DNA of 64,000 bases from NCBI GenBank assembly GCA_002163155.1, contig MAAO01000005.1, positions 167,874 through 231,873 of the forward strand. Reading direction: 5' to 3'. The notes under the pieces were generated by a model that was given only the letters and a program-made list of their open reading frames with translations, did no database searches and was not told the origin of the DNA. This stretch comes from Halobacteriovorax marinus (lineage in GTDB: Bacteria > Bdellovibrionota > Bacteriovoracia > Bacteriovoracales > Bacteriovoracaceae). This document shows positions 1,745-47,097 of this stretch, piece after piece (the first letter of the stretch is position 1; every line of letters begins with the position of its first letter). The position numbers and the translations under genes were made by a program.

Positions 1745-1752
1745 GGAAAACT

Positions 1753-24340: not shown

Positions 24341-24342
24341 AA

Positions 24343-25296
24343 CTACTTCTTCCCCTTACTCTTACTCTTACTTTTGACCTTGCTTTTGCTCTTACTCTTC
24401 TTCTTAAGACCTTCAAAAATCTTCTCATTACCAGAGTACGCCACACTGGCGCCATAGTAGAAACAACACATGAGAAAATAGACCCAAATAAGAGCAATCA
24501 TAAAGTTTGTAAATTGACCGTAGTCTTTAATTAAATCATCTTTAAAGAATTTCACATAGACCCAATAACCACTTCTTCCGATGAGGAAACTCAAAACAAA
24601 AGTTCCTCCTCCAAGAAATGCATCTTTATTAGAAACCTTAATGGATGGGCAGTATTTATAGAACATACTAAAGAAAACAAAAGAGAGCAGTGAACTTACG
24701 AAACTATTGTGAAACAAGAGAATGAAGAATTCACCTAGAGGTAAAATCCTAACCATCTCTTGCACCGGCCCTTCTTGTCCCACAAAAACTAAGAGAACAA
24801 TGTAGAAAGTAATTCCTAACCCCGCTAGAAAAGAGCGAACATCATCCCCTAACAGACCTCCATCAGGATCAACTTTTGAGAGAATATTTATACCAAAGAC
24901 AATGGAAGTTGAAATTCCCATGGAAGCAAAAACTAAGAAGGAAAATTCCAAGAAACTAAAACCATGATTTTGCAGTTGATGATTAATAATGTTTTCTAGA
25001 TTTGAGTAGAGCCAACTGTCTACTTTTGGAAAAGAACTATGGACGATATTCATCACATAATCTCTTGCCGTGGCAGAATCTGAAATCATAAGCCCTATGA
25101 GACTGATGAAGAGTAGAATAACAGGAGCGAAACTTAAGAGTGTAAAGAAAGTCGAAGCTCCCGCAACAACTTCCCCTTTTCTTCTTTTGAATAAGAAAAG
25201 TCCCTGCACCAAACGGTACAAAATACTCTTGAAGAGATCATAGCTTTTTTTCTCAGCTAACTCTCCGAAATCACTTAGTGATCTTGCTCTTGCCAT
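24343..25296 (-). CDS. YihY/virulence factor BrkB family membrane protein
   Basis: AGASTFFTLLSFAP, FYKYCP, YGQF...IALIWVY...YGA; six or more TM helices. Confidence 0.85.
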   Translation of the reverse strand: MARARSLSDFGELAEKKSYDLFKSILYRLVQGLFLFKRRKGEVVAGASTFFTLLSFAPVILLFISLIGLMISDSATARDYVMNIVHSSFPKVDSWLYSNLENIINHQLQNHGFSFLEFSFLVFASMGISTSIVFGINILSKVDPDGGLLGDDVRSFLAGLGITFYIVLLVFVGQEGPVQEMVRILPLGEFFILLFHNSFVSSLLSFVFFSMFYKYCPSIKVSNKDAFLGGGTFVLSFLIGRSGYWVYVKFFKDDLIKDYGQFTNFMIALIWVYFLMCCFYYGASVAYSGNEKIFEGLKKKSKSKSKVKSKSKSKGKK

Positions 25297-25346
25297 GATT
25301 AAATATCGGAAATTATTGAGAAAAACTTTAGAGAGCTTTAAGAAAT

Positions 25347-25368
25347 AAAAAGGCCCTCAAAAGAGGGC
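25347..25368 (-). terminator. Intrinsic terminator after fabI
   Basis: Minus strand GCCCTC-TTTT-GAGGGC followed by CTTTTT. Confidence 0.65.
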
Positions 25369-25400
25369 GATTCATATATAAAAATAAATTTTATTATAGA

Positions 25401-26168
25401 TTAAGCACCCATAATACTAAGGCCACTATCCACATAGAGGATCTCACCAGTCACACCTGCGCCAAGAGAACTTGCTAAGAAAACTGCCGCTCCCCCAACA
25501 TCTTCAGTTGTAACATTCTTTCTAAGAGGAGCTTTCTCTTCAACGTCTTTAAGAAAATTCTTTAGACCTGGAACACCACTTGCTGCCAATGTTCTAATTG
25601 GACCTGCAGAAATACTATTCACTCTAATTCCCTCAGGACCTAAGTCATCAGCAAGGTATCTCACACTTGACTCTAGTGCAGCTTTAGCAACACCCATAAC
25701 GTTATAACCTTTTAGAACTTTAACTGATCCGTGATAAGTAAGAGCAATAACAGAAGCTCCAACATTCATCTGAGGTCTAAGTGACTGGCACAGACCAATC
25801 AAAGAGAAGGCAGAAATATCACAGGCCATTTTGAAACCTTCACGAGAAGTATCAGAAAATCTCTTCTTTAAATCTTCCTTATCAGCAAAAGCTAGTGAGT
25901 GAATTAGGATATCAAATTTTCCCCAATTCTCTTCAACAGCTTTAGAAAGTGACTCGTAGTGATCATCATTAGTCACATCCATTTCAACTAAGAAGTCCGC
26001 TCCAATTTCCTCAGAAAGTGGCTCAACTCTCTTTTTAAGAGCATCATTTAAAAAAGTCATACCAACATCGGCACCTTGAGCTTTAAGCGCTCTAGCGATT
26101 CCCCATGCAATTGATCTTTCGTTTGCTACGCCTAAGATTAAGGCCTTCTTTCCCTGTAAGAGGTTCAT
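25401..26168 (-). CDS. fabI: Enoyl-ACP reductase
   Basis: GVANERSIAWGIA, HSLAFA, ISAFSL, YNVMGVAKAALE (Yx6K), ISAGPIRTLAA, GEILYVDSG. Confidence 0.96.
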   Translation of the reverse strand: MNLLQGKKALILGVANERSIAWGIARALKAQGADVGMTFLNDALKKRVEPLSEEIGADFLVEMDVTNDDHYESLSKAVEENWGKFDILIHSLAFADKEDLKKRFSDTSREGFKMACDISAFSLIGLCQSLRPQMNVGASVIALTYHGSVKVLKGYNVMGVAKAALESSVRYLADDLGPEGIRVNSISAGPIRTLAASGVPGLKNFLKDVEEKAPLRKNVTTEDVGGAAVFLASSLGAGVTGEILYVDSGLSIMGA

Positions 26169-26263
26169 ATTTATTCCTTTGATAGTTGATTTTTAATTTC
26201 CGACAAGTTTACAAGGCCATGTTCATATACACAACGACATTTAGTAACTGGCCGCACAAATAC

Positions 26264-26980
26264 TTACTTCGGATCGAAGATATAGCCAACAGACCTAAGT
26301 GATTTAAAATACACTGGATTCTTGGGATCAGCTTCGAAATATTTTCTGAATCTTACAATAAAGTTGTCCACAGTTCTGGTAGAAGTTTCACCATCATAGC
26401 CCCAGGCCGTCTCAAGTAGCTCTTTTCTTGAAAGTGGTTGTCCAATATGAGAGATGAAAACTTGTAAGAGTTTAACCTCTTGTTCTGTAAGTTGAATGGG
26501 ATTCCCACCAACAGTGGCCACCATTTTCTTAAAATCGATGTCCACATTGGAAAAGCTATAAGTCTCTCCAATATACATTTCCACCACATGAGCACTTTGA
26601 GTTTCTTCTTTATACCAATCGGCTTTTTTTAAAAGTCGTTCAACACGAAGGAGCAGTTCATCTAAGTCAAAAGGTTTTGCAAGATAATCATCAACACCTT
26701 TATTGAGAGCTTTAACTTTATCTCTAGAAGCATCTTTAGCTGAGAGAATGAGAATAGGAATTTTCTGATCAACCTTTCTTATTTCTTCTAGAACTTTGAT
26801 TCCATCAATACCAGGTAACATAATATCTAAAAGAATAAGATCAGGTTGCCATGAAGTCCACATTTTAAGGGCTTCAATTCCGTCCTCAGCATGTTCAACA
26901 TTATGACCCTGAAGCTTTAAATTTAGTTTAAGACCTTCGGCAAGATGCTTTTCGTCTTCAACAATTAATACTTTCTTCAT
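26264..26980 (-). CDS. OmpR-family response regulator
   Basis: VLIVEDE, LLDIMLP, DDYLAKPF, TRTVDNFI, RSVGY. Confidence 0.94.
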   Translation of the reverse strand: MKKVLIVEDEKHLAEGLKLNLKLQGHNVEHAEDGIEALKMWTSWQPDLILLDIMLPGIDGIKVLEEIRKVDQKIPILILSAKDASRDKVKALNKGVDDYLAKPFDLDELLLRVERLLKKADWYKEETQSAHVVEMYIGETYSFSNVDIDFKKMVATVGGNPIQLTEQEVKLLQVFISHIGQPLSRKELLETAWGYDGETSTRTVDNFIVRFRKYFEADPKNPVYFKSLRSVGYIFDPK

Positions 26981-27927
26981 GATTTAGTACTCTCTCGTTG
27001 GATTAATAGTGTGAATGTAGAACCTTTCTCTAGGCCTTCACTTTCTATATCTATTCTTCCCTTATGTATTTTTAGTATCTGAGACGTAAGATATAGACCT
27101 AGCCCACTACCTTTTGTCGTCTTACCAATCTGGTAGAACTTTCTAAAAATATTTCGCTGTTCACTCTTATCGATTCCTTTTCCATTATCAACAAAGTCAA
27201 TGGCCATTTTTCTTCCAAGAGAGCGAAAGCTAATTTCAACAATAGGTTTCTTTGTATTATTATATCTAAAGGCGTTAGTGAGAATATTCATGAAAACCAT
27301 TTCCATTAATGAAGTATCAATTAACGCAAAATAATCAACATGATCAATTTTCTTAACAATTATTTCGCCATCTTCAAAGAGGTGTGGATTCTTGGCAAGA
27401 AAGTCTTCTAGAAAAAGAAAGAGATTATGACGATACCTTTTCACGGTGAAGTTCTTATCTTCAATTCTACCTAAATTTAAAATTTGTCCAACGTTATCAG
27501 ATAAACGTTCCGTATCACGAATCATATATTCAATATACTTGAGTTGATCTTCCCTAGAGAGTTCATGCTTCTTGAAGGTGTCTAAGAAAAGTCTCATGGA
27601 AGCAATGGGAGTTTTCAGTTCATGGGTAAAACCGTTAATGAAGTTTTGCTGCAACCTATAGAGCTGAATAACTTTTTGATAATAAACAAAGATAATAATT
27701 GTTCCCGCAAGAATAATCGCCACTAACACCGAAAGAAAGAGAATGGTCACCCAAGTATCAGCTTCAAGAAATTGAACCGCTTCAATTTTATTTTTATCTA
27801 CGAAAATTCGAAGAGAATCATAAACACCTAGATAAGACTGGATATACACAACCAGAGAAGTGATGAGTGCTATCAGGGAGAAAGTGAATATAAAAATTGG
27901 GTGGAAGTACCACTTAAATGATCTCAT
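26977..27927 (-). CDS. Sensor histidine kinase
   Basis: Two TM segments; FTHELKTPIAS; NILTNA; DNGKGI; GSGLGLY. Confidence 0.93.
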   Translation of the reverse strand: MRSFKWYFHPIFIFTFSLIALITSLVVYIQSYLGVYDSLRIFVDKNKIEAVQFLEADTWVTILFLSVLVAIILAGTIIIFVYYQKVIQLYRLQQNFINGFTHELKTPIASMRLFLDTFKKHELSREDQLKYIEYMIRDTERLSDNVGQILNLGRIEDKNFTVKRYRHNLFLFLEDFLAKNPHLFEDGEIIVKKIDHVDYFALIDTSLMEMVFMNILTNAFRYNNTKKPIVEISFRSLGRKMAIDFVDNGKGIDKSEQRNIFRKFYQIGKTTKGSGLGLYLTSQILKIHKGRIDIESEGLEKGSTFTLLIQRESTKS

Positions 27928-28010
27928 GGGGTAAAACTAGCAGAATTATCATCTATTGAACAATTGCAAATGATCCCTCTATCAAGTAGCTTATATCATG
28001 AGGAGACATC

Positions 28011-28673
28011 ATGAATAATATCAATTCTTACATCGATCACACCCTACTTAAGCCGGATGCCACGAAGCAACAAATCGTTCAATTATGCCAAGAGGCCAGT
28101 GAATACAACTTTGCGACAGTATGCATTAATCCTACCTGGATTGAAACGGCTAAGGAGTGTTTAAAAGATAGTGATGTGGGAGTTTGTACTGTGATTGGCT
28201 TTCCTCTTGGTGCAACTCTTTCAGAAGTTAAGGGATTTGAAACCACTAGAGCAATAGAGGCCGGTGCCAGTGAAGTGGATATGGTGATCAATATTGGTGC
28301 TTTAAAAGATGGCCTAGATGAAGTTGTACTAAAAGATATATCGACCGTAGTAGAAGCTGCAAGAGAAGTTCCCGTTAAAGTCATTATTGAAACTTGTCTC
28401 TTAAGCGACGAAGAAAAAGTAAGGGCCTGCCAACTCTCAGAAAAGGCCGGAGCAAAATTTGTTAAAACTTCAACTGGATTTTCAACAGGTGGTGCTACTC
28501 TTAGTGACGTAGAACTCATGCGAGCAACTGTGAGTGATAAAGTTCTTGTTAAGGCGTCTGGAGGCGTAAGAGATTTAGAAGCCGCTAAGAAAATGATAGC
28601 TGCCGGTGCCGCAAGACTTGGAACCAGCTCAGGAATAAAAATTCTCAAAGGTGAAGTTGTTAAAGGATATTAA
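28011..28673 (+). CDS. deoC: Deoxyribose-phosphate aldolase
   Basis: [51 protein letters not shown]. Confidence 0.97.
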
Positions 28674-29647
28674 TGACAGTTTTTGTAATTCTTTGGAGTA
28701 CAGACAACTACTCCTGTAGAATAGACCTTCTTGATTTTCTTACCTTTAACTAAGTCTAGTAATATATCGATCGCATCGTAACCCATCTTGTAAGGATTCT
28801 GACCTATATTACCACTGGAGAGGCCGTCTCTTAAAAGATCCATTTGTGCAGGTTGGGCATCAGAAGAGAAGGAAAAAAGTTTTCCATTTTTCAAATATTT
28901 CTTATAACTAGAAATGGTTTCAATATAAGCTTTTGTAGAAAGCTGTGCCCATCCCCCCATGAAAATGACAGAAGACTTCTTCATCTTTTCAAGTGATACG
29001 GAAAAGATATGATCCATCTGACTAATGGCGCGAGGAGAATTTTCTAAACAATAGAGCGGACATCTTGGATTCTGAGTAAAGATTTCACCATTAGCATTCT
29101 TTAGAGATTCATTAAAACCTCTGACTCGCTCATTTAAATTGAAAGTATAACTATGACCACTAATCACACAGTATTCTGAATTTATACCACCAGCATTACT
29201 CTTCTTATAGAGCTCTCCCAACTGAAATCCTAATTCATAGTTATTTGTTCCAATATAAGCCGCACGTAAATTTGGTTCTGCTTTCAATACCTTTTTAGAA
29301 AAGTCAGCATCCACAGTCACAATGGGAAAGTCTTTAGGAACATGTTTATGAATAGATCTTTGCATGTATTCCGAATTAATAACAGTTAAGGCCAGACCAT
29401 CAACTTTATACTTATCCATAAATTCAAAGAGTTTGATTTCTTGCACTCTTGGATTGGCCTCTTCCATCTTGGCAAAGTGACATTCAACATTGGGAAGTTC
29501 TTTTGCACGTGCCATACATCCCCTTTCAATTTCTTTGAAGAAAGAAGAACGAGACTCTTTGGCGATAAAACCAAAACGGTAAATTTTCTCTTGCGACATA
29601 CAAAGTGGGCTAAATAATAAGAGCGAAATTAAGAGTACTTTTTCCAT
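28670..29647 (-). CDS. Periplasmic sugar-binding protein (RbsB/LacI-type fold), orphan
   Basis: Signal peptide; [42 protein letters not shown]. Confidence 0.82.
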
Positions 29648-29692
29648 AAGATATTATACATGAAAAACAATATCTTTGAACTTTAGACAAAG

Positions 29693-30346
29693 TTAACTTT
29701 TTGCTATTAAGGCCGAAACGAATCTTCCATCGTGGGACATACTAAGGTCCCAGCTCTCTAATTGTAGACCATCCTTCCAAATTTCAGGTGGACCAAAACG
29801 AACCCCTAGAGGAAAGCGAAGGATCTCAATATCTTCTAAAGATTTCCCTTGTAGAGTTAACTTGGCCAACTCTCTTACCGCTTTGGATTCTTTAGAATAA
29901 ATTGAGGATTCTTCTTCAGCAGTGAAAACAAAGTCTGTTGTCACTTCTTGAGTTTCCACAACTGACCATTCTAGAACCTGGAGCGACTGTCCCTCCTTTG
30001 AGAAGGTTCCTATACAGTGAATCCAAGATTCACTATATTGCCATTGGACATCAATAGTATATTTATCATACCTAACAATGCCATGACTTCCTGAATGCTT
30101 CTCCACATGAAAGAGTGAGTGGGCAAAGACTAAATCAGGAATAATTTTCTTCAAAATTTTATAGGCAGATTCTTTGGCAGACCAAAGAGTCCATAGAAAG
30201 ATATCTGGATCACTCTGAGCTTTTAAGAGAGTGTATTCCTCTGCAGTTAAAACTCTCTTAATAAATCTCTCGTTCTTAGATTTCTTTTTAATTTCAGGTT
30301 CAAGTAGATCTATTAAATCATTTCCGACTAGACACTTCATGCTCAA
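29693..30346 (-). CDS. 4'-phosphopantetheinyl transferase
   Basis: VGNDLIDL, LWSAKESAYK and SMSHDG motifs; last gene of the FAS cluster. Confidence 0.9.
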   Translation of the reverse strand: MSMKCLVGNDLIDLLEPEIKKKSKNERFIKRVLTAEEYTLLKAQSDPDIFLWTLWSAKESAYKILKKIIPDLVFAHSLFHVEKHSGSHGIVRYDKYTIDVQWQYSESWIHCIGTFSKEGQSLQVLEWSVVETQEVTTDFVFTAEEESSIYSKESKAVRELAKLTLQGKSLEDIEILRFPLGVRFGPPEIWKDGLQLESWDLSMSHDGRFVSALIAKS

Positions 30347-31106
30347 AGTACTCCTCTTCCATTTTCTTTATTTCACTGATGACTTGAATTGAGAGATCTC
30401 TTACTTTCCTAAGACCTTTTAATTCTGAAGTTGGTGTGGTCATTTTCATACTGAGATGAAATCTTTCACCTTTTGAAGGAAAGTTGGCAAAACCACCATT
30501 CTTTATTCCACGCATATAAATACAAAGGACTTTAGTGTTAGGAAGTGATTTTAATAATTGTCCCGTTCCGTAGGAGAAATCCTCATCATCAACTATTCCC
30601 GTACGACTTCTCTTACCCTCAGGAAAAATTGAAATCAAATCTCCTCTATTTAAAATATAGAGCATTTTGTCAGTGGATTCTTTAGCCTGTTTTGGAGAAG
30701 CTTTCCTAGTAACAGGAATACACTTTCCTAAGTAACAAACCATTCTCCAATGGAGTTTATGATAGAAGTTTTTCTTCTCTGGTAGATTCCATGGAAGCCT
30801 TCTAAAATGCAATAAATAGTTAGGAATCGAACTGAGAATAACCCCTTGAATAATAGAATCTATCAACGTTAAGTGGTTGGTACAAACTAGTACAGGACCT
30901 TTGGCTTCTTTTAGCAGATCTTTGTATTGTTTCCTTAGCTCTTTTAAATTATCCACTTGGTATTTAAACTTAACGTGAAATAACAAGTGCATCAAAGGAC
31001 CAAAGAAGACAAAGAGACAGCGCGATGCTGCCCTTTGTATCTCTAAATTTAATTTTGTACTAAGTGGTAAACTAGTTAAGCTTTGTGTTGATAAGCTTGA
31101 CGGCAT
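30318..31106 (-). CDS. Acyl-ACP acyltransferase (PlsC/LPLAT family)
   Basis: NHLTLID (HxxxxD), CIPVTR, IFPEGKRSRTG. Start uncertain; ATG at 31106 overlaps the ACP 3' end. Confidence 0.85.
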   Translation of the reverse strand: MPSSLSTQSLTSLPLSTKLNLEIQRAASRCLFVFFGPLMHLLFHVKFKYQVDNLKELRKQYKDLLKEAKGPVLVCTNHLTLIDSIIQGVILSSIPNYLLHFRRLPWNLPEKKNFYHKLHWRMVCYLGKCIPVTRKASPKQAKESTDKMLYILNRGDLISIFPEGKRSRTGIVDDEDFSYGTGQLLKSLPNTKVLCIYMRGIKNGGFANFPSKGERFHLSMKMTTPTSELKGLRKVRDLSIQVISEIKKMEEEYFEHEVSSRK

Positions 31107-31320
31107 CACCGATTGTCCAGATTTCATCTGCAGCCTCATCCTCTACTTCAATATCAAATTCATCTTCGAATGCTAAAACAATATCAACAAGACGTGCAGA
31201 GTTGACTCCTAGGTCTTCTAGTATTTTAGATTCTTGAGTAAGAGTCGAAAGAGACTCTGTATTTTTTGCGTATGGCTTAATTAGTCCTACTACTTTTTCG
31301 TAAATTTCTGTTTCGTTCAT
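31072..31320 (-). CDS. Acyl carrier protein
   Basis: 82 aa, acidic; DLGVNSARLVDIV..FEDEFDI with the predicted Ppant Ser; GGAGA Shine-Dalgarno. Confidence 0.92.
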   Translation of the reverse strand: MNETEIYEKVVGLIKPYAKNTESLSTLTQESKILEDLGVNSARLVDIVLAFEDEFDIEVEDEAADEIWTIGDAVKLINTKLN

Positions 31321-31349
31321 TTTGATCTCCTTATAAATAAACTGATTTA

Positions 31350-32621
31350 TTATTCTTCATATTTCTTAAAAAGGACACAGCCATTAACGTCACCAAAACC
31401 GAAGCTTGATTTTGCTATAACTTTCCCTTTAAATTCTACTGTCTTTCTAACTACACTCTTTTCTACTTTTTGAATTTCAGGATGTAAGTCTTCACAGTTT
31501 AGAGAACCATGAATAAAACCTTTATTCAACTGTAAAACAGTAGCAACACACTCAAGTCCACCAGCTGCTCCAAGAGCATGACCAATCATAGACTTTGTAG
31601 AGTTGATAAGTGGAAATTCTGACTCTGAAATTTCAAGTGCATTCTTCCAATTTCTAATTTCACTAGGATCTGCAAAAGTTGCAGTTAAGTGACCATTGAT
31701 AGCATCAACATCTTTTGCTGCGAGATTCGCCATACTCATGGCCTCTCTAATACATCTCATCACCCCTTCAGGGTTTGGAGCAGTCATTGATCCACCACCA
31801 CGGTGACCACCACTATTAACGTGACCACCAACGATTTCACAATATATTTTAGCTCCACGAGCTTTTGCACTTTCAAGGCTTTCAACCATTAAAAGTCCCG
31901 CGCCAGAACCAGGAATAAATCCTGCAGCACTTTCACTCATAGGTCTTGATGCTTTTTCAGGAGTGTCATTGAATTTAGTATTTAAAACTTTCATTCCGTC
32001 AAAACCTGACCAAATATAGTGAGAAGAACCTTCGGCACCACCGGCCATCATTCTCTTTGATCTGCCTTCTTTAACGTGTAAGAAAGCATTGATAATGGCC
32101 TCTGTTCCCGTTGTACAAGCAGAACTATTCGTTGTTACTTGTCCACCAAGTCCTAGCAGTCCACCTAGTTTAGCACTCACTGAGCTGCACATGACTTGTT
32201 CAACCATTGTGCTTCCTAGTCTTCTTACTTTTCCAGCATCTACTTTAGGAACAAGTTTTTCTCCGATAGTATCCATTCCACCGATACCAGTTCCAATGAT
32301 GGCCCCAGTATCCCAGTCGACTTCACTATCAGGAGAGACCTCTCCAAGTCCTGCATCTTTCCAGCAGTCAATTCCAGCAATCGCTGCATAGATCATACTG
32401 TCATTCATCGCCATTAAGTTTTCACCATCAAGATAACGAGACTTTATTTCATCAACATTCTGAGGAACACCTGCCACTTGGCAACCAAACTTCAGTTCTT
32501 TCATTTTTTCAATAAAGCGGATTCCAGATTTTCCTTCTCTAAGAGAAGTTTCATATTCTTCTAATCCATGACCATTTGGAGCAATAACTCCCATACCTGT
32601 AATTACGACTCTAGTTCCCAC
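31350..32621 (-). CDS. fabF: Beta-ketoacyl-ACP synthase (FabF-like)
   Basis: RVVITGMG, SSACTTG (Cys), NGHLTAT and KSMIGHALGAAG (His-His), SSFGFG. Confidence 0.88.
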   Translation of the reverse strand: MGTRVVITGMGVIAPNGHGLEEYETSLREGKSGIRFIEKMKELKFGCQVAGVPQNVDEIKSRYLDGENLMAMNDSMIYAAIAGIDCWKDAGLGEVSPDSEVDWDTGAIIGTGIGGMDTIGEKLVPKVDAGKVRRLGSTMVEQVMCSSVSAKLGGLLGLGGQVTTNSSACTTGTEAIINAFLHVKEGRSKRMMAGGAEGSSHYIWSGFDGMKVLNTKFNDTPEKASRPMSESAAGFIPGSGAGLLMVESLESAKARGAKIYCEIVGGHVNSGGHRGGGSMTAPNPEGVMRCIREAMSMANLAAKDVDAINGHLTATFADPSEIRNWKNALEISESEFPLINSTKSMIGHALGAAGGLECVATVLQLNKGFIHGSLNCEDLHPEIQKVEKSVVRKTVEFKGKVIAKSSFGFGDVNGCVLFKKYEE

Positions 32622-33063
32622 GCTTTACTCCCATTCCTGCAACTGTTCCCTCTGCTACAAGGTCACCGTTATCTAAATACATTCTAACTTTAGAACGTAG
32701 TTTCATTCTTCTATAAAATACTTTCTCACCTTTAATAGTCACTGTCTGACCCGGTAGAACTGGTAGATAGAAATCCATCTGACAATCCGTAAAGAAAGTT
32801 GTCCACTGTGGTAATTCTTCTTCTCCAACTTTTAGCGCAGTTAGATATAACCCAAGAGCAACCACACCAGTTTGTGCCATCGCCTCAGTTAGGATCACGC
32901 CAGGAGTTACAGGATCACCTGGAAAGTGACCTTGGTAGAAATACTCATCTTCTTTAAATGTGTATCTACCTACAATGTAATCTTCTGAGAGCTCAACTAT
33001 TTCATCTAAGAAACGAAATGGTTTTTGCTGTGGAATATATTCTAGAACTTTAGAGGGCTCCAT
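32611..33063 (-). CDS. fabZ: 3-hydroxyacyl-ACP dehydratase, FabZ type
   Basis: IPQQKPFRFLD; GHFPGDPVTPGVILTEAMAQ (His/Glu). Confidence 0.88.
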   Translation of the reverse strand: MEPSKVLEYIPQQKPFRFLDEIVELSEDYIVGRYTFKEDEYFYQGHFPGDPVTPGVILTEAMAQTGVVALGLYLTALKVGEEELPQWTTFFTDCQMDFYLPVLPGQTVTIKGEKVFYRRMKLRSKVRMYLDNGDLVAEGTVAGMGVKRGN

Positions 33064-33781
33064 ACATTCCTCCGTTTACGTGAAATGTATTCCCTGTACA
33101 GTAATTTCCCTCAGTAGCGAGAAAACGCACCATACTAGCTATGTCTTCTGGTTTTCCCATTCTTCCAAGTGGAATTCTTTCTATAATTTTTAACTTTTCT
33201 TCTTCAGGTAAACTCTCTGTCATTGGTGTTTCAATAAAGCCTGGGGCAATTGAATTCACTAAAATTCCGTAGTGAGCAAACTCTAAAGAACAAGTCTTAG
33301 TGAAACTATTTATCGCCGCTTTAGTCATGGCATAAACCGATTGACCAGCGTTCCCTGTACTTCCTACAACAGAAGAAATATTTATAATACGACCAGCTGA
33401 CTTTCTCGCCATCATTCTTCCTAGTCTCTTAGTAAGGTACCAAGTACTTCTCATATTAACCGAAACAACTTGATCAAAGTCAGCAAGTTTCGCTCTCATA
33501 AGGGGAGCGTCTTTTGTCATTCCTGCATTATTTACAAGAACATCAATTCCACCTAAGGCCTTAAGTTCTTCATAAATATGATCGACTCCAACTTCTGTGG
33601 AAAGGTCAGCTTTAATAAGAAAACTTCCTGGAAGTTCTTCCATAAGTTTCTTAGCTGAGAGATCACTTGATCTATAATGAATTCCTACTCTATATCCAGC
33701 TTTTGCTAACTCTCTACAACAAGCGGCACCAATACCACCGGCTCCACCAGTTACTAAAGCTATTCCTTTATTCTCACTCAT
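33050..33781 (-). CDS. fabG: 3-oxoacyl-ACP reductase
   Basis: TGGAGGIG, VNNAG, NISSVVG, YAMTK, PGFIETPM, VNGG. Confidence 0.88.
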   Translation of the reverse strand: MSENKGIALVTGGAGGIGAACCRELAKAGYRVGIHYRSSDLSAKKLMEELPGSFLIKADLSTEVGVDHIYEELKALGGIDVLVNNAGMTKDAPLMRAKLADFDQVVSVNMRSTWYLTKRLGRMMARKSAGRIINISSVVGSTGNAGQSVYAMTKAAINSFTKTCSLEFAHYGILVNSIAPGFIETPMTESLPEEEKLKIIERIPLGRMGKPEDIASMVRFLATEGNYCTGNTFHVNGGMYGAL

Positions 33782-34362
33782 TTCTTCATCACTCCTCCGG
33801 TACTATTCTTAGACCGATTGGGATAGTCGCCATATTGAATGTCAGGAAAAACTCCGACTTTGGCATCGTTAATTGTATAAATTTGTTCACCATCAACAAG
33901 AACTTTCCCCGTTCCAATAACGATCGAAGTTCCTTGTATCTGAGTAAAACGTCTCACTTCAATATCGTAAGTGACAACTTTATCGTAGGGTCTAATTTGT
34001 CCTTCAAATTCAACTTCCTTACAACCAAGTGCCCTTCCACTTCCCGTTGCTCCTCTTAGAGCACAGTACATACCAAGCAATTGCCAAACAGCATCCACTC
34101 CAAGACAACCAGGTTGCACAGGATCATTTCTAAAATGACACTGAAAGAACCAAGCATCAGTAGTGATATCTTGTTCGGCCACAATTCTTCCGCGCTTTCC
34201 GTTATGTTCAATACTAACAATGCGATCAAACATAAGCATTGGCGGAGCTGGAAGAGAAGGAATTAAACCAGGAGCATCGCTCACTAGAGTTTGATTTCCC
34301 CACGCCAGTAATTGTTCTTTATCAAGTCTGCTTGAATCTAAAAATTCATTGTAATTCATCAT
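33778..34362 (-). CDS. fabA: 3-hydroxyacyl-ACP dehydratase/isomerase, FabA type
   Basis: LPAPPMLMFDRI; WFFQCHFRNDPVQPGCLGVDAVWQLLG (His/Asp, FabA-diagnostic); GRALG. Confidence 0.9.
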   Translation of the reverse strand: MMNYNEFLDSSRLDKEQLLAWGNQTLVSDAPGLIPSLPAPPMLMFDRIVSIEHNGKRGRIVAEQDITTDAWFFQCHFRNDPVQPGCLGVDAVWQLLGMYCALRGATGSGRALGCKEVEFEGQIRPYDKVVTYDIEVRRFTQIQGTSIVIGTGKVLVDGEQIYTINDAKVGVFPDIQYGDYPNRSKNSTGGVMKK

Positions 34363-35354
34363 TATTTAGCTACCTCTAATAAAACTCCACCCCAACTAAG
34401 ACCTGCTCCCACAACTCCCATGATCACGAGATCACCCGCCACAAGGGAATCAATATTTTGAGAAAGAACTGATGGAGCACCAGCGGCACCACAGTTTCCA
34501 AATTTGTCTACGTTGAAGAAGTGATTCTTGGAATCGATTTCGGCCATACGACAAACTGAATTCAACATCAGTAGATTTGCTTGGTGACCGATAAATTTAA
34601 CATTATTTTCTCTCTCACCTTCAATGATTTCTCTCATTTTTTTAATAATGGCGAGAGATCTTTTGATAGCGAAAGTTTGAACTGTTCTTCCATCTTGTTT
34701 AAAGTGAGAGCCAGTTCTAAAAGTCACTTTCTCCCAACCTTTAGGAGAAGAAGTTAAGAAACTATGTAGGACTTTTATTTTAGATGGTGTCTTAGTTGAA
34801 ACCACCATAGCACTTGTACAATCACCCCAGAGCACAGCTGAGCTTCTATCAGAATAATCAATAGAACGAGTACTGTTTTCAGGGTTCACAACTAAGATAT
34901 ATTCAGGAAGTGCATCTGGTTGCATAGTGTTTAAAAAATTCAACTGTGCTGCCATTGATGAACAAGCAGAATTGATATCCATTGCAGGAACTTCTAATTC
35001 TAATTCACCTGCAATTGTGCAAGCTTCAGCAGGGCAGCTGTACTGAGGAGTACAACTACCAGAAATAACCATGCCTATATCACTTAACTTTAATCCAGCT
35101 TTTTCAACGGCCATACGAGACGCCAAGGCACCTGTTTGGGCATTAGTATAAAGAGAAGCTTCACGGGCCATGGCCACATCAGCGTTCTTAGTCTCTTTTA
35201 AATAATCTAGTGGCAGTACGGTACGTCTTGATTCAATACCTACTCTTTCAAGAATCCACTCATGAGTTGTTCCAATATCTAAGTTTTCCAGAAATTGGTT
35301 ATCAATTATGTTTTCAGGATGAAAATGTCCAACGCCATGTAAGTACAACATCAA
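34362..35354 (-). CDS. fabH: Beta-ketoacyl-ACP synthase III (FabH-like)
   Basis: WILERVGIESRR, DINSACSS (Cys), LWGD, GHQAN (His), GNCGAA (Asn), GAGLSWG. Confidence 0.85.
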   Translation of the reverse strand: MMLYLHGVGHFHPENIIDNQFLENLDIGTTHEWILERVGIESRRTVLPLDYLKETKNADVAMAREASLYTNAQTGALASRMAVEKAGLKLSDIGMVISGSCTPQYSCPAEACTIAGELELEVPAMDINSACSSMAAQLNFLNTMQPDALPEYILVVNPENSTRSIDYSDRSSAVLWGDCTSAMVVSTKTPSKIKVLHSFLTSSPKGWEKVTFRTGSHFKQDGRTVQTFAIKRSLAIIKKMREIIEGERENNVKFIGHQANLLMLNSVCRMAEIDSKNHFFNVDKFGNCGAAGAPSVLSQNIDSLVAGDLVIMGVVGAGLSWGGVLLEVAK

Positions 35355-35374
35355 TAATTAACCTTAACTCTAAT

Positions 35375-36313
35375 TTAAAGAGAAGCTATTTGTTCTCCAC
35401 CATCCACGCGAATGATAGATCCATTAATCCAAGCGGCTTCATCAGTACACATAAGAGCGATAAAGTTGGCCACGTCAGTAGGAGTTGTTGTTCTATTAAA
35501 TGGATTTCTAAGTTTTGCCACAGACTCCATTCCTATACTTCCAGGAATAAGTTTAAGGGCAGGAGTTGGAGTCACACCTGGTTGTAAAATATTTGATCTA
35601 ATTCCGTATGGTGCAAATTCAACTGCAATAGATCTTGAAATAGATTCAAGTGCAACTTTTGCAGCAGCAACAGCAGCGTAACCTTTCCAAGCGACAGTGT
35701 TCCCTTCACTTGTAAGACCTATAACTCTAGCATCATCAGCAAAGAGTTCATTTTTAAAGACATCTTGAACCCATGAAAGAAGACTAGTCCCCATAGAGTA
35801 GATAGTTTGTTCCATATCTTCTTCACCTAAGAGCATTTCAGAATGCTTGTGAGTTTGAAGAGTATGTAGAGAACTAACGCCTTCCTCTAAGAGAGTATCA
35901 ACGGCATTCGTTAATGTGTCTTTAGAAAGACCTAGTTTTTCAGAAAGTTTTGCAATGGCAATATCACTGGCTGATTCATTTTTAGAAGGAGCAATTCCTT
36001 TTAAATTTCCAAAAGCTATTGAGTGAAGAAGAAGTCTAACCTTTCCGTTCTCTCCCATATTTTCTTTTAGAGTGGAGATCACTTCGTCTCTTCCAACTTC
36101 TGTAAGAGCATTAATATTTAAAGAAACAAATTTAGAATCATTTGCTCTGATTTCATCAAAGTCTTTTTCAATTCTACTCATGGCACCACGTCTATCACGG
36201 TGAACGATAAGTATGTTCATTCCATGACGACTAAGTTTCTTAGCTGTTGCTAGACCAAATCCACTTGATCCACCTAATATGACTGCCCAATGATTACTAT
36301 TAAATTTTTCCAT
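35375..36313 (-). CDS. Enoyl-ACP reductase-like SDR (second ENR)
   Basis: LGGSSGFG, LLHSIA, YAAVAAAK (Yx6K, ENR type), TPALKLIP, IRVDGG. Confidence 0.8.
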   Translation of the reverse strand: MEKFNSNHWAVILGGSSGFGLATAKKLSRHGMNILIVHRDRRGAMSRIEKDFDEIRANDSKFVSLNINALTEVGRDEVISTLKENMGENGKVRLLLHSIAFGNLKGIAPSKNESASDIAIAKLSEKLGLSKDTLTNAVDTLLEEGVSSLHTLQTHKHSEMLLGEEDMEQTIYSMGTSLLSWVQDVFKNELFADDARVIGLTSEGNTVAWKGYAAVAAAKVALESISRSIAVEFAPYGIRSNILQPGVTPTPALKLIPGSIGMESVAKLRNPFNRTTTPTDVANFIALMCTDEAAWINGSIIRVDGGEQIASL

Positions 36314-36412
36314 TTCTTATCCTTTGATAATTAAACTCTCGACATTAGAAACTAGGTCAAATTGAATGAAAATAGAAGGGGCGGAGAATTACAAAACTTT
36401 TACAGAGTGTAA

Positions 36413-36434
36413 GACGCACAAAACGATGTGCGTC
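36413..36434. promoter_or_regulatory. Perfect inverted repeat upstream of the FAS cluster (candidate operator)
   Basis: GACGCACA-AAACGA-TGTGCGTC, 100 nt upstream of the ENR start, with no U tail. Confidence 0.4.
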
Positions 36435-36517
36435 AAGGATCAACTGACTGAAACTACTTATGAAAAAAGCTAACTCAAGACAAACATAAACTTTTGTTCA
36501 AGAGCAGCTATAACGGG

Positions 36518-37024
36518 TTATGACTTCTTTTTAAGAGAGAGCATGAGGCTAAATTCGGCCACTATTTCGTCACCTAACTTATCTGGACACTTGGCCACAA
36601 TTTTAACCGGCATATGATGACGCTCACCGCTCTCTATGACCATTTTGACAAAGTCGCTAATTTCTTCACCTTGCTCACAAATAAAGTGAGTATCACCTTC
36701 TGCTCTTTTTAAAAACTTTGCGTCAAATTCTTTAAAAGCAAGAGAAACTTTCTCACCGGAGTTTTCAATGATTTTCATGGCCGAGAGTCCACCAGCTAAA
36801 TCAGCACCACAGGCCAAAACACCAAAGTACATTGAGTTTAGGTGATTCTTTGTTCTTCTTCCGTAAGGAATTTTAACAACACAACGCTTATCAGAAAGTT
36901 CAATCACAGTAGGTCTTAACCAAAAGAGAAGAGGCACTTTTAAAAGACCAAAAATTCTGATCATAGCTGTGTCTCTATACTTTGGTGGTAGGCGATTTAA
37001 AATATTTTGAGTTATAGCGCTCAT
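36518..37024 (-). CDS. DUF4442 / PaaI-like hotdog-fold protein
   Basis: VPLLFWLRP.V, TKNHLNSMYFG, FLKRAEGD. Likely start MSAITQ at 37024 after AGGGGA. Confidence 0.8.
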   Translation of the reverse strand: MSAITQNILNRLPPKYRDTAMIRIFGLLKVPLLFWLRPTVIELSDKRCVVKIPYGRRTKNHLNSMYFGVLACGADLAGGLSAMKIIENSGEKVSLAFKEFDAKFLKRAEGDTHFICEQGEEISDFVKMVIESGERHHMPVKIVAKCPDKLGDEIVAEFSLMLSLKKKS

Positions 37025-37031
37025 GATTCCC

Positions 37032-37832
37032 CTAGGAGTTTTTAGATAATTCTTTTGATCTATTATAAGCAGCATCTATGGCCTTTTCTACCATTAATTG
37101 CATATTCTCTGATTTAAAAACTTCTAAAGCTTCATAAGTGACTCCTTTCTTACTAGTCACATTATTTCTTAGGGTTTCTGGGCCCTCATTGCTCTCAAGC
37201 TGCAGCTTACTGGCACCAAAAACGGTCCACTTCACCATTTCACTGGCCACATCAGCACCTATTCCCATGTCTACCATTTTCTGAATGAGGATCCTTGAGA
37301 ATTCAAAAATATAGGCAGGTCCAGAACCACTAAAGCCGGTAATTTTATCTATTTCATCTTCAGTTTCAAAGACAAACACTTTAGAAAAACTATCAAATAA
37401 TTTAACGAGGTGCTCTCGCTCAGAGGCGCTCACTTCATCTGAAAAATAAAAGGCATTAACTCCAGCACCAACTAAGGCCGGAGTGTTGGGCATGATTCTT
37501 AGAACTTTGGTGACTCCTAAGAGATCTTGAATAGTAGCAACTGTACTGCCTGCGAGAATGGAAATCACTACCGCATCGGGATTTAGTTTTCCCTTAATCT
37601 CAGAGGCCAATTCTTTTAATTGTTGCGGCTTACAAGAGAGCATATAGTAATCACACTTAGGAACTTCTAAAAGCGTTTCTAACACAACACCATTGACTAC
37701 ACCTGCTAGCTCTATAGCTCTTTTTTGGCTTGGAGTATAAAGTGTATAAGAAAGCTCAGCTTGCTTATTATAAAGGCCCTCAATAATCGCACGGGCCATA
37801 TTTCCACAGCCAAAACTTAGAAGTGATTTCAT
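37032..37832 (-). CDS. proC: Pyrroline-5-carboxylate reductase
   Basis: FGCGNM, CKPQ, ISILAG, RIMPNTP, GFSGSGPAY, VTSKKGVT. Start at 37832 overlaps the putA stop (ATGA). Confidence 0.93.
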   Translation of the reverse strand: MKSLLSFGCGNMARAIIEGLYNKQAELSYTLYTPSQKRAIELAGVVNGVVLETLLEVPKCDYYMLSCKPQQLKELASEIKGKLNPDAVVISILAGSTVATIQDLLGVTKVLRIMPNTPALVGAGVNAFYFSDEVSASEREHLVKLFDSFSKVFVFETEDEIDKITGFSGSGPAYIFEFSRILIQKMVDMGIGADVASEMVKWTVFGASKLQLESNEGPETLRNNVTSKKGVTYEALEVFKSENMQLMVEKAIDAAYNRSKELSKNS

Positions 37833-40800
37833 AATATTACATCCATAGGTGCTCCGTGTCTCATTGTGTTCACTGCAAATGAGCGGACATTTACATATTG
37901 ACGACAAATTCTTTTAAAATCTGTGATGTCACTTGTATCAAATTTCGAGCTAAAGTTTCTCATGACTTTATGTTCTGAAGAATTTCTATAAGAAAATTCA
38001 ATAACTTCTTGCAGACAAGACTCATCTCCGTCAACCAGAACGTTTTTGATTTCAGGATGCCCCAGAGTTTTCTTCAAGAGGTCTTCTGAAACAAAGTAAA
38101 CTTCGAAATTTTCTTTAGAAATACCATGTTCAAATACTACATCGCGAATTCCCATCCACCAGTCGTAAGATGAATTATTTCGGCAAAGAATGGTGAGACC
38201 AGAACCAGAGACGATAGCGGCCAGGGCCTCAATAATCATTTCAAAGTCAGGAAGAGTATTAAATGAAATCAGCACAGACTTCGTATTACTATTTTTATAA
38301 TCATCGTAACTCAGCTGTCCTGGAATTAACTTATTCCAATGTTCTTTATTCAGATACTCTTCGTAATTAGTCATGACCCACTTGTAAAAGCTTGTGAGAA
38401 TTTGTTTCTCATCACCGCGGATTCCTCTAAAGAGATGCTCAAAGTGGCGTAACATATGAGAGAGAATTTTATCCATTCTCTGAACTCTTGTAACTCCGCG
38501 CAGACCACTAGCTCTGGATATATCAAAGCTATAATCACTCCCCGCTTCTAGTTTAACTTCTGAACATTTGAAGTCTCTCTTTGGATTTAAGTGAAGATAA
38601 CTTAAGTAGGCCTTTCCACCGGCATTGGGTCCAGTTCCTGAGAGTTTAAACCCTCCAAAAGGTTCTATCCCGACTCTGGCACCTGTAATAGACCTATTGA
38701 CGTAAATATTTCCAGACAACATTTTATTCGTAAGATAATCAATATCATCTTGAGACTGACTAAACACTCCCCCTGTTAGAGCGTAGTCTGTTCCATTATA
38801 GAGTTTAAGCGCGTGATCTAGGTGATTAAATCCTATGATGTGAAGAACCGGGCCAAAGAGTTCTCTCGTAGCAAAACTCTCACTATGCAAAGATCTTGCA
38901 GCAGGCAGTTCTATGATGGCGGGACCAACACAGAAACCAGGAAGATCTTCGCCCGTTCTATTTACGTGAACCTTTCCACCAAATTCGTTGGCCTCTTTAG
39001 CGGCTTCTGCCACCTGAGAAATAAGTCTTTCTTTATCTGCTTTAGTTATTACAGGATTTACTGAAGTTTTAAACTCATAGGCCACACCAACTTCAAGATC
39101 AGCACAGGCCTCTTTTAACCTTTCAATGAGTCTATCTTTAACGGCATTATCTACTAGAACCCTTGAAGCTGCAGAACATTTTTGTCCAGCATGGCCAAAA
39201 GCAGAATAGAGAATTCCTGAAACGGTCTCATCTAATTCAGCGTTGGCAGTGACGATAACAGCATTCTTACCACCCATTTCAGTAATAATTCTAACCGGGT
39301 ATTTTAAGCCATTTAATTTGTTATCATATATTCTCTTATGCGCCTTAGAGGCAATAAGAGTTCCTACCATTTTAGAACCTGTAAAAATAATTCCTGCAAT
39401 TCTCTCATGAATAACAAGAGCATTCCCCACTGTTTCTCCTTCACCAGGTAAGTGAATGAGAACATCTTTTGGCACGCCACAAGAGTGAAGAATATCCACT
39501 AGCACTTGAGAGATTAAAGGAGTTTGTTCAGCTGATTTTAAGACAACTGTATTCCCAACAACAAGAGAGCTCACGACCATTCCACAAGGGATTGCCAGAG
39601 GGAAATTCCAAGGAGAAATGACCGCCACGGCACCACGAGAATCAAGTCGACTATTGTGTTTTTGTAATCGTCTCTCTTCTCTTGCGTAGAAAGTCATAAA
39701 GTCGATGGCCTCATCAACGTCTGCAAGCGCTTCATTAATAGCTTTGCCCGCCTCATAAACAATGAGAGAAGAGAGCTCATTTCTTCTTGCGAGCATAACG
39801 TTAGCAGCTCGTAGTAAACAAGAGGCGCGCAGAGTCCAATCAGACTTGGCCCAGCTTCCTTCATTGTATGAGCGGTCCACAATTTCAACCGCCCTATTAG
39901 CGTCATCTATAGAGGCAAATTGAATTTCCCCCACACAGATAGAAGGAGCGGAAGAGCAAGGAATAGATGTTCTCTTTTCGTCCTTTAAAAATTCATTTGG
40001 GTAATAGTTCCCAAGACTCGTTTTAAATAATTCAAGTTCACTCTCGGCCCATAGTCTTTGCTCATCTAAGTAAGTACGCACAGGGGCCACATTAATAAAA
40101 TCCCCAGTTAAATGAGTTTGCGACTTATCACGCTCAAGGTGTCCATCGGTTATTTTCTTTTTATGAACCTCACAAGGTGTCACTAGAGATTGTTGCTTCT
40201 TATGGGAGCGCATGATTGTAAGAACTCCAACTTGGGAAGAGTTTTCCATAACTCTTCGTACCAAGTAGGCCATTCCTACGATCAAAGAACCAATGGGAAC
40301 ATAATTTCTCACCACCCAATTCATTTTCGCCATGGCCGTTGAAAGGGCCTCATAAGTCATGTGAAGACACTGATGTTCAATCATGGGTGTACTTGGAAAC
40401 TTCTTCTCTCTAAGAGTCACAGCGAAGGCATGATCAGCGAAGTTATGAGAAGCGAGACAAAGTTGCACATGAGGATTTGCTTCAAAGATTTTGATAATGA
40501 GTTGCCTAAAATGAAGATCAGTTTCTTCTTTATTTAAAAACTCAGGAGCATCAAAACCATGAGCATCGGCCTCTATTGTTTCAGCGTCCCAGTAGGCCCC
40601 TTTTACAATTCTAATAGGCATAACGAGTCCACGCTCAGTAGCGAGGGACACAATTTCTTGTAAGTGTTTATAAGCATCACGTAAGTAGGCCTGCAGAACA
40701 ATTCCAGTACTCTTGAAGTCATGAAGTTCTGGAGTCTCTAGGAGAACTTTCTTATAAACTTTAAAGACGATGTCTCGGTAGTCATAATGTTCAGCATCTA

Positions 40801-46935: not shown

Positions 46936-47097
46936 AACATCCTCCAAAATTCGTATTATGTGGTTTTTCTAATATTAAAATTTAATTACTTATACTCTAA
47001 TCGAAAGAAAACGAAAACACTTGAGTTATTTTCGATTATTTTAAAAAAAAATTCTCTAGGAAGAATAGGCCTTTCGCCAATAGACCTCCTAGGGAGA

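Follow-up and report, generated by a model that had tools for sequence, protein, structure and literature searches.

Introduction

By textbook account, the FabA/FabB route to unsaturated fatty acids (UFAs) is restricted to the Alpha- and Gammaproteobacteria. In rhizobia, the acpXL-fabZXL-fabF2XL-fabF1XL-lpxXL cluster makes very-long-chain fatty acids with a private acyl carrier protein (ACP), dedicated FabZ and ketosynthase (KS) enzymes, and a dedicated acyltransferase. A further arrangement, FabH-FabA-FabZ-FabB-ACP, has been described, by annotation only, in an operon of Coxiella burnetii (CBU_0038-0034; Moses et al. 2017, PMC5423948). CBU_0034-0038 were reported to have been acquired en bloc from a deltaproteobacterium or a spirochaete, with the same arrangement present in Spirochaeta africana, and they lie alongside a vertically inherited fatty acid synthase (FAS; CBU_0493-0497). 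In Vero cells, mutants with a transposon in CBU_0035 or CBU_0038 grow less well (PMC5423948). A more recent study treats CBU_0034-0038 as a second FAS that forms part of a larger cluster of lipid genes, predicts monounsaturated products, and places FabA relatives in Proteobacteria, spirochaetes, and Thermodesulfobacteriota (bioRxiv 10.64898/2026.05.14.724635). The Coxiella papers contain no discussion of an ACP signature, a phosphopantetheinyl transferase (PPTase), an acyltransferase, a short-chain dehydrogenase/reductase (SDR), spread across phyla, or a variant with a type III polyketide synthase (PKS). Here we describe a nine-gene type II FAS cassette at positions 29693-36313 (minus strand) of a 64,000-nucleotide stretch of Halobacteriovorax marinus DNA (assembly GCA_002163155.1, contig MAAO01000005.1, positions 167,874 to 231,873), the whole of which we call the window.

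With modest confidence, we read these genes as an accessory, mobile FAS cassette that would build a FabA/FabB-type cis-unsaturated chain, independently of oxygen, on a private ACP, from which its acyltransferase would deliver the chain to membrane lipid. The pathway had initially been annotated as undescribed, a claim that has to be narrowed: an operon of the same order has been reported, on annotation only, in C. burnetii. The kind of system is thus already known by annotation; what is new is the exact insertion site, the limits of the cassette, the ACP signature of the family, the presence statistics, and a sister form linked to a type III PKS.

Evidence for an accessory insertion in Halobacteriovorax

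Open reading frames (ORFs) of the window were listed and translated, and families were assigned by Pfam and NCBIfam scans. DNA of related loci was fetched around FabI homologues and compared with the window by blastn. Seven Halobacteriovorax loci (L087-L091, L095, and L096) share the gene order response regulator-putA-proC-DUF4442-deoC-histidine kinase-response regulator-fabI-brkB and have no cassette; in all seven, the DUF4442 gene and deoC are adjacent, a few bases apart. The window carries 7,848 bp at this point (28675-36522), made up of the nine genes, a leader of ~200 bp, and a periplasmic binding-protein gene. On either side, positions 24030-28674 and 36523-41828 are collinear with positions 12088-7489 and 7483-2186 of L091, where the corresponding gap is 5 bp. 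The only relative to share it is the nearest one sampled (L097, FabI 95% identical), which has the same junction of PPTase, periplasmic binding protein, and deoC; the insertion is thus lineage-specific and not an assembly artefact.

The separate fabI that the initial annotation placed at 25401 is a FabI-family enoyl-ACP reductase gene (25401-26168), its 13 best NCBIfam matches all being FabI models (top score 339 bits). Its product is 89-92% identical to the FabI of Halobacteriovorax and ~76% identical to that of Bacteriovorax and Bdellovibrio, and FabI thus follows taxonomy. Neither FabD nor an AcpP-type motif was found elsewhere in the 64-kb window. Together, the existence of relatives that live without the cassette, the missing FabD, and the scores of five cassette proteins below housekeeping equivalog cut-offs argue strongly that the cluster is, as had first been proposed, an accessory second FAS and not the housekeeping system.

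The binding-protein gene (28670-29647, minus strand; 325 aa with a signal peptide, Peripla_BP_4) lies 45 nt downstream of the PPTase gene and also adjoins it in L097. It is not beside the cassette in the related loci L093 and L094 or in other phyla, and it is absent from the cassette-free syntenic relatives. This gene was co-inserted and is not a conserved cassette member. The insertion borders show no direct or inverted repeats beyond chance, tRNA, Rfam element, integrase, or transposase, and a tblastn search of 72,556 plasmids with the KS gave no match at E≤1e-60. Composition is unremarkable (GC 0.385 versus 0.368; GC at third codon positions 0.27 versus 0.32), and the acquisition is not recent, or the donor was of similar GC content.

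A hotdog protein of the DUF4442 family (36518-37075) was considered as a cassette thioesterase and rejected, because its gene adjoins proC in the cassette-free relatives and is unlinked to the cassette elsewhere. In one of those relatives (L087, 7822-9778), a GNAT acetyltransferase gene and a gene for a 430-aa protein are extra between the response regulator and fabI; this neighborhood has thus taken up insertions more than once.

Organization of the nine genes

The nine minus-strand genes had been placed at 29693-36313 and assigned to the families given below, and Pfam and NCBIfam searches uphold these assignments. In order of transcription they encode the SDR, a FabH-like enzyme, FabA, FabG, a FabZ-like dehydratase, the KS, the ACP, the acyltransferase, and the PPTase. 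The recurrence of this order in dozens of unrelated genomes places the arrangement far beyond chance, and the catalytic motifs are intact in family alignments.

The genes are tightly packed. The FabH and SDR genes are 20 nt apart and the KS and ACP genes 29 nt apart; overlaps measure 1 nt (FabA/FabH), 4 nt (FabG/FabA), 14 nt (FabZ/FabG), 11 nt (KS/FabZ), and 23-29 nt (PPTase/acyltransferase). The initial annotation had given every junction as an overlap or gap of less than 30 nt, which holds except between ACP and acyltransferase, where the overlap is 35 nt from the ATG at 31106, the start that agrees best with homologues, or 68 nt with the longest ORF. It had also singled out an ACP with NSA in place of DSL and the possession by the cluster of its own ACP, PPTase, and acyltransferase. 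All three genes are present, and the sequence of the ACP at this site is LGVNSARLVD, in which Ser41 is the serine of NSA.

Upstream of the first gene lies a leader (36314-36412, minus strand) that probably holds the promoter and ribosome-binding site, with AGGA 8-11 nt before the ATG of the SDR gene; similarity to the L093 cassette ends with this leader. A scan for promoters and terminators gave none above the shuffled background. Exactly at the end of the similarity, an 8-bp GC-rich hairpin (GACGCACA...TGTGCGTC) occupies positions 36412-36433 (minus strand); it may terminate transcription of proC/DUF4442, which lie upstream, or may mark the cassette edge.

Predicted activities of the encoded proteins

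The SDR (35375-36313, minus strand, as are all nine genes; 312 aa) is a predicted enoyl-ACP reductase with FabL as its best NCBIfam match. All of 30 family members keep Tyr212-x6-Lys219 and, in the N-terminal part, GGSSGFGLA without change. The Y-x6-K spacing is typical of FabI/FabL enoyl reductases and not of ketoreductases (Y-x3-K), and the best Protein Data Bank (PDB) matches include 2,4-dienoyl-CoA reductase and FabL (3oic). The GGSSGFGLA motif is FabV/TER-like rather than that of a classical SDR. An insertion of ~45 residues stands between LHSIAFGNLK and TIYSMGTS (alignment columns ~157-210); the Flavobacteriaceae variant described below and loci L014 and L056 are without it.

The FabH-like protein (34362-35354; 330 aa, Pfam ACP_syn_III and ACP_syn_III_C) is a ketoacyl-ACP synthase III (KAS III), the predicted initiating condensing enzyme. 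It scores 146.6 bits against TIGR00747 (cut-off 292.1) and is closest in the PDB to Aquifex FabH (2ebd); its Cys/His/Asn residues, in the motifs SAC, GHQAN, and GN, are kept family-wide. FabA (33778-34362; 194 aa) is a homologue of the 3-hydroxyacyl-ACP dehydratase/trans-2,cis-3 isomerase. It passes NF003509 (209 bits, cut-off 124), falls below the stricter TIGR01749 (166 versus 238), and can be aligned over its whole length to E. coli FabA; the active site (CHF...DPVxPGCLGxDA) is intact and is kept in 57 sequences. FabG (33050-33781; 243 aa), a 3-oxoacyl-ACP reductase by its match to TIGR01830 (253.7 bits, cut-off 297.75), has the classical Y-x3-K (YAMTKAA). The FabZ-like dehydratase (32611-33063; 150 aa, Pfam FabA-like domain) scores 69-72 bits against FabZ models, under their cut-offs (69.4 versus 155.15), and keeps the motif GHFP..P.TPGVIL.E in 78 sequences.

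The elongating KS (31350-32621; 423 aa), which serves as the marker of the family, is FabB/FabF-like. Cys169, His311, and His348 are invariant, and the motifs TNSSACTTG, NGHLTAT, and SFGFGDVN are specific to the family. The fabF model gives 301.5 bits (cut-off 493.75), and the best PDB matches are the FabB enzymes of Brucella, Vibrio, Yersinia, and E. coli (214 bits), with FabF close behind (~200). The ACP (31072-31320; 82 aa, PP-binding domain) scores 53-59 bits against ACP models, under cut-offs (53.5 versus 70.45), and its signature DLx(V/I)NSARLVD(I/V)(V/I)L is kept across the whole family. In helix II, the recognition helix, Arg stands where AcpP has acidic residues. An Arg-bearing recognition helix fits a carrier insulated from host enzymes, and the altered helix (NSARLVD) would keep flux apart from the housekeeping FAS.

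The acyltransferase (30318-31106; 262 aa from ATG 31106, or 273 aa from 31139) belongs to the PlsC, or lysophospholipid acyltransferase (LPLAT), family (PF01553, 45.7 bits). Its best NCBIfam match is the acyltransferase domain of the acyl-ACP--phospholipid O-acyltransferase Aas (46.9 bits), and NHxxxxD and FPEGxRS are kept in 53 sequences; a single-sequence structure model had a mean pLDDT of 36 and was unusable. The PPTase (29693-30346; 215-217 aa) matches Pfam ACPS over residues 7-108 (50.9 bits), and its GND, WxxKExxxK, and SxSHDG motifs are kept in 58 sequences; a PDB sequence search gave no relative.

Distribution and mobility of the cassette family

One genome per species was scanned with the KS peptides SFGFGDVN and TNSSACTT, which yielded at least 599 stretches, at least 577 of them confirmed. 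The same cassette in the same order is present in at least 577 species-representative genome stretches from more than a dozen phyla. The best 80 of these confirmed stretches come from Gammaproteobacteria (including Marinicella, Coxiellaceae, and Francisellaceae), Spirochaetota, Leptospirales, Acidobacteriota, Myxococcota, Desulfobacterota, Nitrospirales, Calditrichota, KSB1, Latescibacterota, Omnitrophota, Gemmatimonadaceae, Bdellovibrionota (including the cultured Oligoflexus tunisiensis), and Flavobacteriaceae. When the proteins of the window were mapped to these 80 loci, the order was the same throughout; further members come from Burkholderiales, Spirochaetales, and Bacteriovoracaceae. A search for RNA evidence gave only three seawater metagenome runs, all typed as probable DNA, one of which contains the sequence.

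Across phyla, KS homologues are 54-92% identical to the window KS, those in metagenome-assembled genomes (MAGs) labelled Bacteriovoracaceae, Gammaproteobacteria, Burkholderiales, Lysobacterales, and Spirochaetes reaching 66-92%. In L093, which has the closest KS homologue (89% identical), the same nine-gene block stands beside molybdopterin-synthesis and nap genes, and DNA similarity to this block (77%) covers exactly window positions 29722-36412. A further relative (L094) has the cassette in yet another genomic context. A neighbor-joining KS tree places both the window and a single MAG of Bacteriovoracaceae inside a clade of Gammaproteobacteria, Burkholderiales, and Lysobacterales; other Bdellovibrionota group with Leptospirales or Nitrospirales. 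This conflict with taxonomy points to repeated horizontal transfer and indicates that the cassette is mobile between phyla.

Gene content was counted in the 58 loci with enough flanking sequence. The KS is present in all 58, FabZ and ACP in 56 each, the SDR in 47, the PPTase in 44, FabA in 43, the acyltransferase in 39, and FabH in 36; FabG, found in 19, is optional. Directly upstream of the SDR gene and on the same strand, 15 loci have a FabD of ~315 aa with GQGSQ and GHSLGE motifs (L014, L019, L021, L023, L025, L029, L040, and others). By gene content, the fullest form of the cassette is fully self-contained, and the window copy would borrow its FabD. FabD and acetyl-CoA carboxylase (ACC) had been expected to be borrowed: for FabD this is correct for the window copy, since neither the cassette nor the window has one, and it does not extend to the family, 15 of whose 58 loci own a FabD.

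A sister form linked to type III polyketide synthases

In Winogradskyella, Flagellimonas, Aquimarina, Maribacter, and Autumnicola (L077-L086; for example, L082 5875-14365), part of the cassette belongs to a conserved PKS-linked cluster. Its genes run in the order FAD-monooxygenase, methyltransferase, type III PKS, SDR, FabZ, KS, ACP, PPTase, and MMPL exporter, and its KS, 54-57% identical to that of the window, forms a clade of its own. A resemblance of the KS, ACP, PPTase, and SDR to type III PKS-associated clusters of Bacteroidota, noted in the initial annotation, is thereby substantiated, as these Flavobacteriaceae loci hold homologues of all four. A type III PKS with methyltransferase and FAD-monooxygenase is absent from the window insertion and its flanks. 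We found no characterization of this PKS-FAS cluster in the literature; a paper on type III PKS in Planctomycetota has no bearing on the FAS genes. The comparison shows, at the level of gene content, that the SDR/FabZ/KS/ACP/PPTase core behaves as a chain-building module that can apparently be coupled to different off-loading enzymes.

Proposed pathway and alternative explanations

From gene content and conserved motifs, we infer the following enzymatic steps, product, and acceptor. The cassette PPTase would convert the private apo-ACP (Ser41) to holo-ACP, host ACC would supply malonyl-CoA, and host FabD would load malonate. The FabH-like KAS III would then prime the chain, which would be lengthened in cycles by FabG, FabZ or FabA, the Y-x6-K SDR as enoyl reductase, and the FabB-like KS. 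At medium chain length, FabA would isomerize the trans-2- to the cis-3-enoyl-ACP, and its elongation by the KS without reduction would give a cis-monounsaturated chain with no need for oxygen. Finally, the PlsC-family acyltransferase would lift the completed chain off the private ACP and join it by an ester bond to a glycerolipid or lysolipid of the membrane; the lack of a cassette thioesterase fits release by this enzyme. The suggestion in the initial annotation of an unsaturated product is plausible, given a bona fide FabA homologue beside a FabB-like KS. A specialized product and a lipid acceptor, both also put forward there, remain predictions from the genes.

Several observations weigh against a pathway to ordinary cis-unsaturated membrane lipid. 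The KS is under both equivalog cut-offs, scoring 276 bits against the FabB model (cut-off 630), and FabA, FabH, and the acyltransferase are each missing in some variants of the family. Nor is the core inherently devoted to UFA synthesis, given that in the Flavobacteriaceae form it supplies a type III PKS. The acyltransferase, whose lipid acceptor is a prediction, has no sequence relative in the PDB at E≤0.01. Carriers of the cassette further include Lysobacterales and other Gammaproteobacteria, which are expected to have FabA/FabB of their own, so that a plain UFA role would be redundant there. Moreover, FabA and FabB alone would suffice to add UFA synthesis to the host FAS, and a private ACP, PPTase, and acyltransferase thus argue for a segregated, possibly non-bulk product. 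The papers that we found on cassettes of this composition, the Coxiella annotation papers, report no product, enzymatic assay, or lipidomics.

Much of this would be accommodated if the product were not bulk UFA but a specialized lipid or lipid-derived metabolite, with a chain of unusual length, primer, or unsaturation kept on the private ACP; we regard this, the main alternative, as possible, though it is not the outcome we expect. The acyltransferase would in that case serve a non-canonical acceptor, such as a lysolipid with a variant head group, a lipid of the outer membrane, or a lipid signal, a proposal that we make tentatively. The conserved, charge-altered helix II of the ACP, together with the dedicated PPTase, acyltransferase, and FabH-like primer enzyme, is in keeping with such a product, as is the sister form in Flavobacteriaceae, which hands its chain to a type III PKS by a phenolic-lipid-like logic. 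So are the patchy, accessory distribution of the cassette and its presence in lineages that are expected to own FabA/FabB. Against this, the genes match those of an ordinary FabA/FabB-type FAS exactly. The FabH/FabA/acyltransferase form has no conserved tailoring gene, whether for a methyltransferase, oxygenase, halogenase, glycosyltransferase, thioesterase, or exporter, and the best, weak matches of the acyltransferase are phospholipid acyltransferases.

A bolder version, somewhat speculative in our view, is that the cassette is a portable orthogonal FAS whose private ACP, by its charge-altered recognition helix, would not be read by the FAS and phospholipid enzymes of the host. Bacteria of more than a dozen phyla could thereby build a distinct lipid, either a new class or one with position-specific acylation, that has a specific physiological role and is not the ordinary C16:1 or C18:1 of membranes. 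Off-loading would fall to the PlsC-like acyltransferase in the window form and to the type III PKS in the Flavobacteriaceae form.

It is very unlikely that the cassette encodes a polyene, aryl-polyene, or phenolic-lipid pathway of the pigment or secondary-metabolite kind, the last with a starter for a type III PKS. Both dehydratases have weak, precomputed Pfam matches to ApeI-like and ApeP-like families, an LPLAT is also found in aryl-polyene clusters, and homologues of the KS, ACP, PPTase, and SDR stand beside a type III PKS in Flavobacteriaceae. Yet in or beside the insertion there is no type III PKS, second KS or chain length factor (CLF), second ACP, ammonia-lyase, or adenylating enzyme, nor any glycosyltransferase, LolA/MMPL protein, or thioesterase. 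An SDR of the enoyl reductase type argues against a conjugated polyene, and scores against the PfaA (49.6 bits versus 1010) and DarB models (16.7-25.4 versus 550) are far under the cut-offs.

That the cassette is the housekeeping FAS of the organism is extremely unlikely, even though it encodes nearly every FAS II activity and no other fabF, fabH, or acpP is visible within the 64-kb window. The seven syntenic Halobacteriovorax loci without the cassette must belong to organisms that make fatty acids by other genes. FabD is missing; KS, ACP, FabH, FabZ, and FabG are all under NCBIfam equivalog cut-offs; and the KS tree is at odds with taxonomy, with which FabI agrees. A related Bacteriovoracaceae copy, moreover, has no FabG, enoyl reductase, or acyltransferase and could not stand alone. 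Least probable of all, to the point of being negligible, is a supply of short or medium acyl-ACP for cofactors (octanoyl for lipoate, pimeloyl-type for biotin) in the manner of mitochondrial FAS II, which would use a dedicated ACP and PPTase and recalls the weak similarity of the FabH-like protein to the 3-oxopimeloyl-ACP synthase BioZ (73 bits), but FabH enzymes score far above BioZ, cofactor routes have no use for FabA or a PlsC-type acyltransferase, and no lipA, lipB, or bio genes are linked.

Significance

If the cassette does make unsaturated lipid as we propose, it would amount to a plug-in module for unsaturated lipids that needs no oxygen and passes from phylum to phylum. It would carry FabA/FabB chemistry into Spirochaetota, Desulfobacterota, Acidobacteriota, Myxococcota, Bdellovibrionota, and candidate phyla, among them many anaerobes. 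The conserved private ACP, PPTase, and acyltransferase would offer a natural example of an insulated FAS, of use to lipid engineering, and the sister variant opens a way to study the type III PKS clusters that are so common in marine Flavobacteriaceae. A marine or environmental member of the family could also be a convenient surrogate for the biochemistry of the acquired second FAS of Coxiella burnetii.

Other features of the window

Several loci apart from the cassette were noted. At 668-3422 (plus strand), the gene for an arsenite-methyltransferase-like S-adenosylmethionine (SAM) methyltransferase (NF008823, 186 bits, under the cut-off) precedes two others, among them one for a radical-SAM protein that weakly resembles ArsS, an arsenosugar enzyme; the locus may serve the methylation of organoarsenicals or of other compounds. 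A PlsB-type glycerol-3-phosphate acyltransferase of 596 aa (7625-9415, minus strand) covers ~245-730 of the 823-position PlsB model and is without the N-terminal region of enterobacterial PlsB. Within a group of heme genes (aminotransferase class III, URO-D, and radical SAM), a 537-aa protein (13568-15181, plus strand) has a porphobilinogen deaminase domain in residues 32-259 only and is probably a fusion with another heme-pathway domain. PutA (37829-42010, minus strand), comprising proline dehydrogenase and aldehyde dehydrogenase, is unusually long at 1393 aa (1387 aa in other Halobacteriovorax loci). Also on the minus strand are a 228-aa protein (46261-46947) with a C-terminal SWIB/MDM2 domain, uncommon in bacteria, and a 788-aa protein (49306-51672) of the penicillin-amidase family (Pfam E=1e-180), which includes acyl-homoserine-lactone acylases.

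Comparison with known systems

The cassette differs from a housekeeping FAS II in having no fabD and an ACP that reads VNSARLVD in place of D-S-L-D. Nor does it correspond to the Pfa polyunsaturated fatty acid, DarAB, or ladderane systems; no radical-SAM or desaturase gene lies within the insertion. With aryl-polyene clusters it shares a type II KS, an ACP, FabZ-like dehydratases, a ketoreductase, and an LPLAT. Unlike them, it has a single KS and ACP and an enoyl reductase, and the insertion is without a KS/CLF pair, second ACP, aryl-starter enzymes, glycosyltransferase, thioesterase, or LolA/MMPL protein.

The likeness to the rhizobial AcpXL cluster is one of principle, in that a private ACP, a dedicated FabZ and KS, and an acyltransferase deliver a special chain to lipid. 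The cassette has one KS and not two, adds FabA, FabH, an enoyl reductase, and a PPTase, and uses a PlsC-type acyltransferase (PF01553) instead of a member of the LpxL/LpxXL family. With the anaerobic FabA+FabB pathway of the E. coli type, the cassette has in common the FabA His/Asp active site, a KS with FabB enzymes as its closest solved relatives, and the predicted activities FabH, FabG, FabZ, and enoyl reductase. It differs in that the window genes form one cassette with its own ACP, PPTase, and acyltransferase, that the predicted enoyl reductase, an atypical SDR, has a FabV-like motif at the N terminus, and that the cassette is found far outside the Alpha- and Gammaproteobacteria.

The Flavobacteriaceae clusters share SDR, FabZ, KS, ACP, and PPTase in matching order and an ACP motif of the form NSAxLVD. 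They have no FabH, FabA, FabG, PlsC-type acyltransferase, or SDR insertion and add a type III PKS, methyltransferase, FAD-monooxygenase, and MMPL exporter; their logic is that of srsABC/ars-like phenolic-lipid systems, fed by a private FAS module.

The Coxiella operon was likened to the cassette by gene order and taxa. C. burnetii is not among the best 120 matches to the KS of a Coxiellaceae MAG, which are environmental sequences only; that MAG (L026) has a full set of eight genes in the order SDR-FabH-FabA-FabZ-KS-ACP-acyltransferase-PPTase. The window copy differs from the operon in having FabG between FabA and FabZ. The two agree in the core order FabH-FabA-FabZ-KS-ACP, and the donor taxa proposed for the operon match the taxa of the cassette family (Spirochaetales, Spirochaeta, Alkalispirochaeta, and Desulfobacterota).

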